A DNA stretch of 64,000 nt from a virus. The stretch covers positions 56,519 through 120,518 of the IMG/VR virus record IMGVR_UViG_3300045988_112927; one strand, 5' to 3'. The notes beneath the pieces were generated by a model, which had not been told where the DNA came from, made no database searches, and saw only the letters and a program-made list of their open reading frames with translations. Each line of letters opens with the position of its first letter. Position 1 is the first letter of the stretch. A program made the position numbers and the translations under genes. Positions 55,121 to 55,981 of this stretch are shown piece by piece.

Positions 55121-55981
55121 ATGGCTATACAAGTTGGTAGCATTATTCTTAGCTCTGATATGCGGAGTTGGTATACAAGATTGAATAGTATCATATCAAA
55201 GTATGGCGGAAGTATTGCTCAAATGGGAGTACCTGCCGCAGGAAAAATTGCTCAAGCTAGTGATGTAAATACTATTGTTTATAAATTAAATGAAATGAAA
55301 AGTGATAAATATTTAGGAAATGACCAAAGTTTATATACAACTTATGGTACTGTTGGTGTTGGTACTATAATTTATGCTTATCAAGGTCAAAGATTGAATA
55401 CAGTTATTTCTAATTTAGAGACAATTAAATGTAGAAATGATGCCACTAAAATGAATGGAAATACTAATAATATAAAATCTAATACCTGGTCTCAAGGTGC
55501 CAATACTAATGGTTGGTCACAAGGCGCAAATGGTAATGGTTGGTCACAGGGAGCTCATGGTAATACTTGGTCTCAAGGCACTCATGGAAACGGCTGTAGT
55601 CAAGGTGGTCATGGTAATGGCTGGTCACAAAGTAATAATGGTAATGGTAACGGTCGTTCTTATTGTTCAAATGGTAAAAAGACTGTAAGTGGAAATTATA
55701 ATGGTAATCAATGCGCTTATTGGAGTAATAGCGGTACAAATGGAAATGGTTGTAGCCAAGGCGCAAATTATAATGGATGGTCTCAAGGAACTAATTATAA
55801 TGGATGTAGTCAAGGTGTTAATTATAATGGATGGTCTCAAGGAGCAAAATCTAATACTTGGTCTCAGGGGGCAAAATCTAATACCTGGAATCAAGGCGCT
55901 AATTCAAATGGATGGACTCAATGGACCAATCAAAATCAAACTCAAGTAGATATTTATCATGCTAGAGCGACAATAGGTTAA
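55121..55981 (+). CDS. repeat protein: ~120-aa N-domain plus ~15 tandem 9-10-aa repeats N(G/T)(W/C)SQG(A/T)xxN; candidate radical-SAM substrate (RiPP-like precursor)
   Basis: Repeats read directly (GWSQGANTN, GWSQGANGN, GCSQGGHGN, ...); first gene of operon with two rSAM/SPASM genes 15 bp downstream. Confidence 0.5.
   Translation: MAIQVGSIILSSDMRSWYTRLNSIISKYGGSIAQMGVPAAGKIAQASDVNTIVYKLNEMKSDKYLGNDQSLYTTYGTVGVGTIIYAYQGQRLNTVISNLETIKCRNDATKMNGNTNNIKSNTWSQGANTNGWSQGANGNGWSQGAHGNTWSQGTHGNGCSQGGHGNGWSQSNNGNGNGRSYCSNGKKTVSGNYNGNQCAYWSNSGTNGNGCSQGANYNGWSQGTNYNGCSQGVNYNGWSQGAKSNTWSQGAKSNTWNQGANSNGWTQWTNQNQTQVDIYHARATIG

Follow-up and report, generated by a model that had tools for sequence, protein, structure and literature searches.

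To our knowledge, peptide maturation by radical S-adenosylmethionine (rSAM) enzymes has been described almost entirely from bacterial chromosomes and for short precursors. Among the closest systems, triceptide motifs have a three-residue aromatic-X-X spacing, and proteusins have NHLP leaders of ~90 aa, with polytheonamide-type cores that are rich in Asn, Gly, and Val and receive many modifications by a radical-SAM epimerase. In QhpC/QhpD, an rSAM enzyme with a SPASM domain installs Cys-to-Asp/Glu thioethers in a protein subunit, and SPASM enzymes also make pyrroloquinoline quinone (PQQ) and mycofactocin from short conserved motifs. As for U32 proteins, the UbiU/UbiV pair carries Fe-S and acts as oxygen-independent hydroxylases; characterised relatives include RNA and quinone hydroxylases and hydroxylate aromatic rings. 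Here we describe a seven-gene cassette in 64,000 nt of viral DNA (positions 56,519 to 120,518 of IMG/VR record IMGVR_UViG_3300045988_112927), referred to below as the window, with positions counted from its first letter. The first gene encodes a repeat protein, protein A, and the next two encode the radical-SAM enzymes rSAM1 and rSAM2. Protein A is probably the dedicated substrate, i.e., the precursor, of a phage-specific modification cassette that resembles those of peptides that are ribosomally synthesised and then modified after translation (RiPPs), because its gene always stands directly ahead of the two radical-SAM genes. A conserved leader-like part and a variable core, encoded beside modifying enzymes, are the general features by which RiPP precursors are recognised, and protein A shows both. 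RiPP maturation further entails modification of the core and, in most cases, removal of the leader by proteolysis.

Protein A and its radical-SAM partners

The preliminary description of this DNA had presented protein A as a leader-plus-core precursor for adjacent radical-SAM enzymes, and the comparative data agree with that behaviour. Its open reading frame (ORF) and the quoted translation are confirmed (55121-55981, plus strand, 286 aa), and CxxxCxxC motifs are indeed present in the two ORFs downstream, for which radical-SAM models give matches. Homologs without rSAM genes beside them had been named as grounds for abandoning the idea; every homolog with enough flanking sequence (23 loci) has them downstream. 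In these 23 distinct loci, all on phage-like or short metagenomic contigs, the gene for the N-terminal domain (N-domain) is followed immediately by rSAM1, and rSAM2 comes next on every contig that extends far enough. Two independent routes led to these loci, one from the precursor side (ten proteins) and the other a scan with an rSAM1 profile, in which 15 IMG/VR loci were found, their contigs being 28-194 kb long; all loci were annotated with custom hidden Markov models, reading TAG as Gln where needed. The order A-rSAM1-rSAM2 is also kept in loci with no tRNA, U32, or glycosyltransferase genes nearby. A further fragment, L037, has a different, shorter rSAM gene two genes upstream and ends just past the N-domain gene.

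The first search returned 12 close homologs of protein A, while a profile of the N-domain detected at least 226 clusters (clustered at 50% identity), of which 93 fall below 1e-10; in these 226 clusters the domain nearly always begins at residue 1. For rSAM1, 555 clusters were obtained, all metagenomic. Neither the cassette DNA, nor the repeat protein, nor rSAM1 has a match in 50,697 deposited phage genomes (DNA and protein searches), and a scan of 185,579 species genomes for rSAM1 gave just two short contigs of metagenome-assembled genomes (MAGs). The system thus appears to be phage-specific, given that all precursor clusters (at least 226) and all 555 rSAM1 clusters are metagenomic and that it is nearly absent from species genomes. 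In the TAG-recoded loci, genes have 1-13 in-frame TAG codons, with Gln at those sites in database proteins (TAG is read as Gln in L010, L013-L016, L020-L025, L027, L029, L030, L032, L035, and L036). The seven cassette genes of the window contain no in-frame TAG and all stop at TAA, so that the cassette spans standard-code and TAG-recoded phages. A full-text literature search found no description of this family or system.

The tail of protein A consists of 13 clear nonapeptides of the pattern (W/C)(S/N/T)Q(G/S/W)xxxN(G/T/Q), divided between two blocks (Table 1); the count rises to 16 when degenerate in-phase 9-mers are included. Tandem repetition is therefore as first reported, but the earlier figure of ~15 repeats is slightly high. 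Likewise, position 1 is Trp or Cys in 13/13 units, as had been noticed (Trp 10/13, Cys 3/13), but the two residues alternate only loosely along the tail. Lys is present in just 2/13 units, and 5 of the 6 Cys of the protein lie in the tail. Tandem Repeats Finder reports a period of 27 nt in the repeat DNA (scores 97-134, matches 73-80%). The self-identity of the tail at period 9 equals 0.485 and is reached by 0/10,000 residue shuffles, whose maximum over periods 2-20 is 0.163 +/- 0.013.

Aligning the units, a check suggested at the outset, gives a mean pairwise identity of 61% for amino acids and 66% for nucleotides. Different codons are used in 40% of identical-residue pairs between units, and Ser at position 2 has a TCN codon after Trp and an AGY codon after Cys. 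Judged by these identities, the codon differences, and the two Ser codon classes, the repeats are old and held by selection at the protein level. Recent slippage as their origin is ruled out by the differing codons at 40% of conserved residues. No template repeat of a diversity-generating retroelement was found, the blastn matches of the repeat DNA being confined to 55474-55936, with reverse transcriptase not screened in the window. The repeat DNA also yields overlapping ORFs of 63-86 aa at 55497-55949 (plus strand, other frames) and 55506-55894 (minus strand), e.g., MVGHKAQMVMVGHRE, which are regarded as by-products of periodic sequence and not as genes.

Across the family, an N-domain of ~110 aa ending in (I/V)-K-C-R-N is followed by a first block, an aromatic centre, a second block, and a C-terminal motif. 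The most conserved residues are those of the junction: Cys104 is kept in 121/128 and Asn106 in 116/128 family members, sequences that were not pre-selected on any motif. The aromatic-rich centre lies at 0.51 +/- 0.14 of tail length (81 family members), and Cys198 of the central segment is nearly invariant within the window's clade. The C-terminal motif falls inside the last 25 aa in 81/157 retrieved sequences, many of which are fragments. Family tails are composed of Asn, Ser, Gly, and Thr to 56%, with periods of 4-23 aa, 5 or 9 being the commonest, and many are rich in Cys and His; among 73 full-length representatives, 36 are Cys-rich, 8 Trp-rich, and 29 neither. Compared with the window, identity amounts to 57-75% for the N-domain, 59-81% for rSAM1, 48-72% for rSAM2, and 33-60% for the tail; in the most distant, Cys-type loci, which are TAG-recoded, it is 49% for rSAM1 and 42-45% for rSAM2. 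A conserved N-domain set against hypervariable, core-like repeats is in line with the leader role first proposed for it.

The N-domain itself could not be placed in any known family, the RiPP precursor families in which the preliminary description had proposed to look for it included. It has no NCBIfam, Pfam, or PHROG match at E <= 0.01; for twelve family N-domains, no NHLP, Nif11, or other family match appears even at E <= 10; and neither a PDB sequence match nor a specific match to a solved fold was found. Matches in BFVD are weak and belong to uncharacterised phage proteins. AlphaFold2 (AF2), run with an alignment of 58 sequences, predicts an N-domain with helices at residues 11-29, 46-60, and 86-100 (predicted local distance difference test, pLDDT, 79.5; predicted TM score, pTM, 0.70). 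The tail is predicted by AF2 to be disordered, with pLDDT of about 25. Two relatives depart from the common layout. P0122 (in L037) has the N-domain, a dense Cys/Asp-rich stretch (CSCNCDDCYCYCSCDCDFC...), and then a Hint (intein-like) domain (Hint_2, E = 4e-5). P0151 (L033, 7001-8239) is extended at its N-terminus by a further domain of ~187 aa, and its tail is acidic, rich in Asp, Ser, Thr, and Tyr, and lacks the C-terminal IDI motif; the extension has no detectable relation to the neighbouring Laminin_G_3 protein.

As for the enzymes, rSAM1 contains C20-x3-C24-x2-C27 plus invariant Cys at 156, 251, 292, 310, 351, and 416. Its top NCBIfam match is a family of twitch rSAMs, and next in order come the lachnocin, PapB, CcpM, and GggB maturases; the only name given by the source is JGI's generic 'AslB-like'. 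In rSAM2, the invariant Cys are C64/68/71 and a seven-Cys SPASM signature (C336, C354, C401-x2-C404-x5-C410-x3-C414, C433). Within NCBIfam, rSAM2 is matched best by PapB, almost the whole of whose model is aligned (E = 4.7e-11, 42.5 bits vs a cut-off of 340), and further matches are to peptide maturases, namely nif11-associated rSAM, QhpD (E = 1.2e-6, 27 bits vs 453), and ryptide maturases. GrrM/OscB (TIGR04261) is matched by rSAM2 at E = 0.0025 and 16.9 bits vs 310, and StsB at 23.7 bits vs 625. The nearest solved structure to rSAM2 is the sactipeptide synthase CteB (5WGG, E = 1.6e-5), which is the only significant result of PDB sequence searches made with A, rSAM1, rSAM2, E, and F/G, singly and as profiles. 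Because all scores are far below the curated cut-offs (best rSAM matches 17-42 bits vs 170-650), neither enzyme belongs, by profile comparison, to a characterised family, and the triceptide or streptide membership proposed earlier is not borne out. In L032, a locus from a MAG labelled Faecalibacterium, the rSAM2 reading frame (11346-13817) is about 820 aa long, and a fusion to an additional C-terminal domain is therefore implied.

Table 1. Features of the cassette and of protein A, with positions in the window
Feature	Position	Strand	Details
Intrinsic-terminator-like hairpin	54851..54881	+	14-bp stem, 6 GC pairs, T-run; after tRNA-Met; upstream operon boundary
Promoter-like site	55039..55067	+	TTGACT-17-TATACT with TG extension; 10/12 matches; consensus match alone
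Ribosome-binding site	between promoter-like site and ATG at 55121	+	GAGAGGAGG
Protein A (putative substrate/precursor)	55121..55981	+	286 aa; ATG start, TAA stop
N-domain, leader/recognition-like	55121..55444	+	aa 1-108; three predicted helices
Cys104-Arg105-Asn106 junction motif	55430..55438	+	most conserved residues of family
Repeat block 1	55487..55648	+	aa 123-176; six nonapeptides; position 1 = W,W,W,W,C,W
Central non-repeat aromatic/Cys segment	55649..55750	+	aa 177-210, 34 aa; GNGRSYCSNGKKTVSGNYNGNQCAYWSNSGTNGN / YCSNGKKTVSGNYNGNQCAYWSNSG; clade-conserved
Repeat block 2	55751..55939	+	aa 211-273; seven nonapeptides; position 1 = C,W,C,W,W,W,W
C-terminal conserved motif region	55940..55978	+	NQTQVDIYHARATIG; family consensus GT-x-(I/V)-D-I-x-(N/C)
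rSAM1, twitch-type radical SAM	55996..57390	+	464 aa; begins 14 nt past stop of A
rSAM2, SPASM radical SAM	57383..58879	+	498 aa from likely ATG 57383 (gene call); mechanical ORF begins at 57362
Protein D	58818..59174	+	118 aa; kept in most loci
Protein E, GT2-type (GT-A fold) glycosyltransferase-like	59143..60078	+	311 aa; DxD replaced by K..D
Protein F, U32-like paralog 1	60083..61003	+	306 aa from ATG 60083; 313 aa from TTG 60062 (mechanical ORF)
Protein G, U32-like paralog 2	61016..61864	+	282 aa; last operon gene

Variation of repeats and accessory genes among loci

Position 1 of the nonapeptide is Trp or Cys in the window, L001, and L007, but Asn or Asp in L004, L011, and L016, although these three share the window's seven-gene enzyme set and their rSAM1 is 59-60% identical to that of the window. 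Trp/Cys had been put forward as the conserved modification site, and this part of the preliminary description is contradicted by the sister phages: with the same enzymes and Asn/Asp at position 1 in these three loci, sequence comparison indicates that the family's common chemistry can require neither Trp nor a Cys there. The window's lineage could nevertheless have a step specific to Trp, possibly involving the U32 pair. Kept across the repeats of the clade are Ser2, Gln/Asn3, and Asn-Gly at positions 8-9, the conservation of the latter being partly built in, as the register was set by these two positions.

The clade of the window (window, L001, L004, L007, L011, and L016) has D, E, and two U32 genes, and no YcaO. 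Protein D has no PqqD/RRE (RiPP recognition element) or other family match, and its identification as such an element was rejected. Protein E has no direct Pfam match; L023 encodes a GT8+GT2 fusion, to whose GT2 domain hhalign matches protein E with 96.6% probability (E = 4.9e-10, 285 columns). F and G are 30.5% identical. The window's G reaches 19.5 bits against Peptidase_U32, under the cut-off of 22.4, and in the F/G family 4/9 members match that model (best E = 5.8e-9). The invariant residues of the family form the pattern C-x3-C-P...H-Y...C, i.e., three Cys plus His.

No YcaO, cryptic copy included, was found in the window. In other phages, a YcaO gene lies next to the precursor in 8/21 loci; its product passes the curated YcaO-domain threshold and is nearest to stand-alone S12-type YcaO, not to SagD. 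The Cys content of the tails in these eight loci is 13.7, 11.0, 5.7, 13.1, 6.5, 1.2, 5.3, and 6.4%, compared with a median of about 2.3% in the others, so that YcaO loci have the more Cys-rich tails (one-sided Mann-Whitney p = 0.006, relatedness not controlled). Other loci add a third rSAM, an aldo-keto-reductase/ferredoxin fusion, a GT8+GT2 fusion, or extra glycosyltransferases. The 193-kb contig IMGVR_UViG_3300028591_000087 bears two complete cassettes, L024 and L030, near its opposite ends, one with YcaO and a 257-aa precursor and the other with no YcaO and an Asn/Gly-rich precursor frame of 561 aa (484 aa from the first Met).

Relation to described systems and competing explanations

Ranthipeptide and sactipeptide systems (PapB, CteB) are approached in several respects: rSAM2 has a seven-Cys SPASM domain, PapB as best profile, and CteB as nearest structure, the precursor is encoded directly upstream, and Cys-rich tails are frequent in the family. 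However, rSAM2 scores 42.5 bits where 340 are needed, the window's tail has just 5 Cys, the 286-aa precursor has a folded 108-aa N-domain in place of a short leader, and two different rSAMs occur together with U32-like and glycosyltransferase-like proteins in a phage-only setting. With triceptides, the three-residue cyclophane RiPPs of XyeB/GrrM/OscB, the locus shares a multi-repeat precursor, a SPASM rSAM, and the aromatic-X-X spacing of the window's W-S-Q units, but the aromatic residue is not kept in sister phages, the maturase match is 16.9 bits vs 310, and the N-domain is unrelated to the leaders. A streptide-type assignment, which calls for a Lys-Trp cross-link and a maturase of the StrB/SuiB family, finds neither a streptide-maturase model among the rSAM NCBIfam matches nor Lys in more than 2/13 units.

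Proteusins resemble protein A in their large folded leader-like domain, their Asn/Gly-rich core, and possible iterative rSAM changes that need neither Trp nor Cys. They differ in that no NHLP/Nif11 match is obtained here, the rSAMs are of the SPASM and twitch types with no PoyD-type relationship found, and the core is 3-9 times longer. QhpC/QhpD is similar in combining an rSAM-SPASM enzyme with a protein-sized substrate, rSAM2 has a weak QhpD match, and the family has conserved Cys and Asp/Asn; the match of 27 bits is, however, far from 453, and there is no quinohemoprotein context here. As for linear azol(in)e peptides and other thiazole/oxazole-modified microcins (microcin B17, streptolysin S), relatives have YcaO immediately upstream of Gly/Ser/Cys/Asn-rich tails, but the window has none, the relatives' YcaO is S12-type and not SagD, and two rSAMs are always present. 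Finally, F and G recall UbiU/UbiV as adjacent paralogs (30% identical) with conserved Cys and a Peptidase_U32 match in 4/9 members of their family, yet they are very divergent, with just three invariant Cys plus His. A precursor served by rSAM maturases is thus known logic. New, as far as established, are the precursor family, its size, and its bipartite hypervariable-repeat architecture, as well as the invariant twitch and SPASM pair, the U32 pair, the YcaO option elsewhere, and the restriction to phages.

Under the favoured explanation, the N-domain, and possibly the C-terminal motif too, would dock protein A on the translationally coupled rSAM1 and rSAM2, the latter nearest to PapB and CteB, which form thioethers. 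The two enzymes would strip hydrogen atoms off the tail and modify it many times over. The conserved chemistry would probably take place at Cys104, the central Cys, and Ser2, Gln/Asn3, and Asn-Gly of each unit, i.e., at invariant elements, because the same enzyme set serves Trp-type and Asn/Asp-type repeats. Our best guess is thioether or other cross-links from conserved Cys and/or iterative C-H chemistry (epimerisation, cross-linking) on the repeat backbone. The Cys-x-Asn junction and the C-terminal motif would be the fixed points, and the repeats the diversifying core. By analogy, tailoring might comprise glycosylation by the GT2-like E and oxygen-independent hydroxylation by the U32-like F/G, and in other phage lineages YcaO may have been added for tails rich in Cys, Ser, and Thr.

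Several points weigh against this explanation. The case for modification is drawn entirely from sequence, and the predicted disorder of the tail lends it no structural support. The core of 180-450 aa is far larger than in known RiPPs. No RRE/PqqD element is detected, and the operon has no clear leader protease or exporter. The rSAM chemistry is not assignable, since all family matches lie far below curated cut-offs, and the association between YcaO and Cys is uncorrected for phylogeny. An RNA-directed role for part of the operon is possible, in view of the tRNA array around the cassette and of the RNA hydroxylases among the relatives of U32. In addition, a virion protein would likewise be compatible with the tail-lysin, lectin-like, or endolysin genes that neighbour the cassette in two distant loci.

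That protein A is a virion or fibre component, anchored by the N-domain with its repeats exposed and hardened or decorated by the rSAM cassette (e.g., for gut survival) and with no peptide released, is unlikely. Phage fibres usually pair a conserved N-terminus with a variable distal part, the weak matches in BFVD come from uncharacterised phage proteins, and the lack of a protease or exporter in the operon agrees with it. In L020, the precursor gene comes after one for a tail-lysozyme/M23 protein. A tail-module context is hinted at most strongly by L033, where the cassette, with the ~187-aa extra N-terminal domain of its precursor, has a Laminin_G_3 gene on one side and an endolysin-like gene (NAGPA + PG_binding_1) on the other, although tblastn annotation of that context gave nothing informative. 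The window's cassette, however, lies ~38 kb from the portal/terminase module on the opposite strand, no structural-protein family is matched, and the tail is predicted to be disordered. The fibre explanation also overlaps with the favoured one, because protein A would still be an rSAM substrate.

Rather improbable is a multi-core RiPP centred on Trp/Cys, of the triceptide, streptide, or ranthipeptide type, with a cyclophane on W-S-Q or a Cys thioether. The W/C-S-Q unit fits the aromatic-X-X spacing, position 1 is invariably W or C in the window, and rSAM2 is a SPASM enzyme with matches to PapB and, weakly, to GrrM/OscB. Against these stand the Asn/Asp residues of the sister phages with the same enzymes, the Trp-rich tails in just 8/73 representatives, and the GrrM/OscB score.

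Still less probable is an unmodified protein A, either disordered, Asn/Gln/Gly-rich, and prion-like or metal-binding, with enzymes that act on tRNA, another nucleic acid, or a small molecule. The 17-tRNA array around the cassette, the RNA and quinone hydroxylases among U32 relatives, the Cys/His-rich tails of many family members, and the predicted disorder would suit such a protein. However, gene order is invariant in at least 23 loci, including those without nearby tRNAs, U32, or glycosyltransferase genes, both rSAMs have peptide maturases as their closest characterised relatives, and YcaO content tracks tail composition. A cofactor or scaffold model, in which only Cys104-x-Asn106 and the C-terminal IDI motif are used chemically and the repeats are a spacer, is very improbable: conserved residues do flank the variable region, and SPASM enzymes do make PQQ and mycofactocin from short motifs, but a periodic 100-450-aa spacer kept at the protein level is hard to justify, and the accessory enzymes co-vary with tail composition.

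Genomic setting and significance

The window belongs to a tailed phage; its genes for portal, large terminase, and sigma factor occupy 11.6-17.7 kb of the minus strand. Large Firmicutes phages, such as Enterococcus VRE9_4/H1 (50% identity), Geobacillus E3, and SPbeta-like phages, have the most similar terminases, and a Firmicutes host is suspected. An identical rSAM1 is present on a 190-kb contig and in a gut metagenome. The sigma-factor homolog (16615-17667, minus strand; phrog_5767, E = 1e-49) has weak HNH/Lar-like C-terminal matches and is located near 18 kb, where gene orientation and GC skew switch.

The gene of protein A heads seven co-oriented genes (A, rSAM1, rSAM2, D, E, F, and G) with gaps of -62 to +14 nt. 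Seventeen tRNA genes in two arrays flank them, at 50618-54810 and 62254-63698, with tRNA-Met at 54736-54810. Among the flanking tRNAs are two tRNA-Asn(GTT), three tRNA-Glu in succession, and one tRNA-Gly whose anticodon, ACC, is unusual. Protein A uses AAT for 41/43 Asn and GGT for 22/45 Gly; given its Asn/Gly codon use and the tRNA-Asn and tRNA-Gly content, the phage tRNAs may aid translation of this gene. Within the tRNA array, a 108-aa protein (51445-51771) has a cREC_REC (cyclic-phosphate processing receiver) domain (E = 2e-20); in L017 and L026, the gene of a homolog comes shortly after the cassette, on its downstream side.

A conserved upstream block at 44449-50387 adjoins the cassette, with no tRNA array between, in L001, L011, and L017. 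It encodes a 259-aa protein, an M28/PepT-like peptidase (47606-48655), a 106-aa protein, and two proteins matching phrog_18912 (44449-46032 and 48657-50051). The M28-like peptidase, 6.5 kb upstream, could be a candidate processing protease.

In this locus, two conserved rSAM enzymes go together with a putative substrate that has the size of a protein and hypervariable repeats. If protein A is modified as proposed, it would represent a new substrate and enzyme family and probably new rSAM chemistry, because the enzymes are below every curated family threshold. It would also be a first example of a phage protein on which paired Fe-S proteins of the U32 type and YcaO work together with rSAMs; a U32 pair tied to a protein substrate and rSAMs was not found described in the full-text literature. 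Since Trp-, Cys-, and Asn/Asp-type repeats are served by near-identical enzymes, the family offers a natural series on substrate tolerance.

More broadly, these loci may represent a widespread, phage-only class of giant RiPP-like proteins, a view for which we regard the case as evenly balanced; protein A of the window would then be the first of them to have been examined. Its members would combine a folded leader-like domain, 100-450 aa of diversifying repeats, an invariant twitch/SPASM pair, and lineage modules (YcaO, U32 pair, glycosyltransferase, extra rSAM) matched to repeat chemistry, giving a densely modified product engaged in an arms race. Such a product would be cross-linked and/or epimerised, possibly glycosylated or hydroxylated, and its role might be that of a toxin, of an anti-defence factor, or of a surface fibre proof against proteases, which would raise the question of what use large gut phages make of it.

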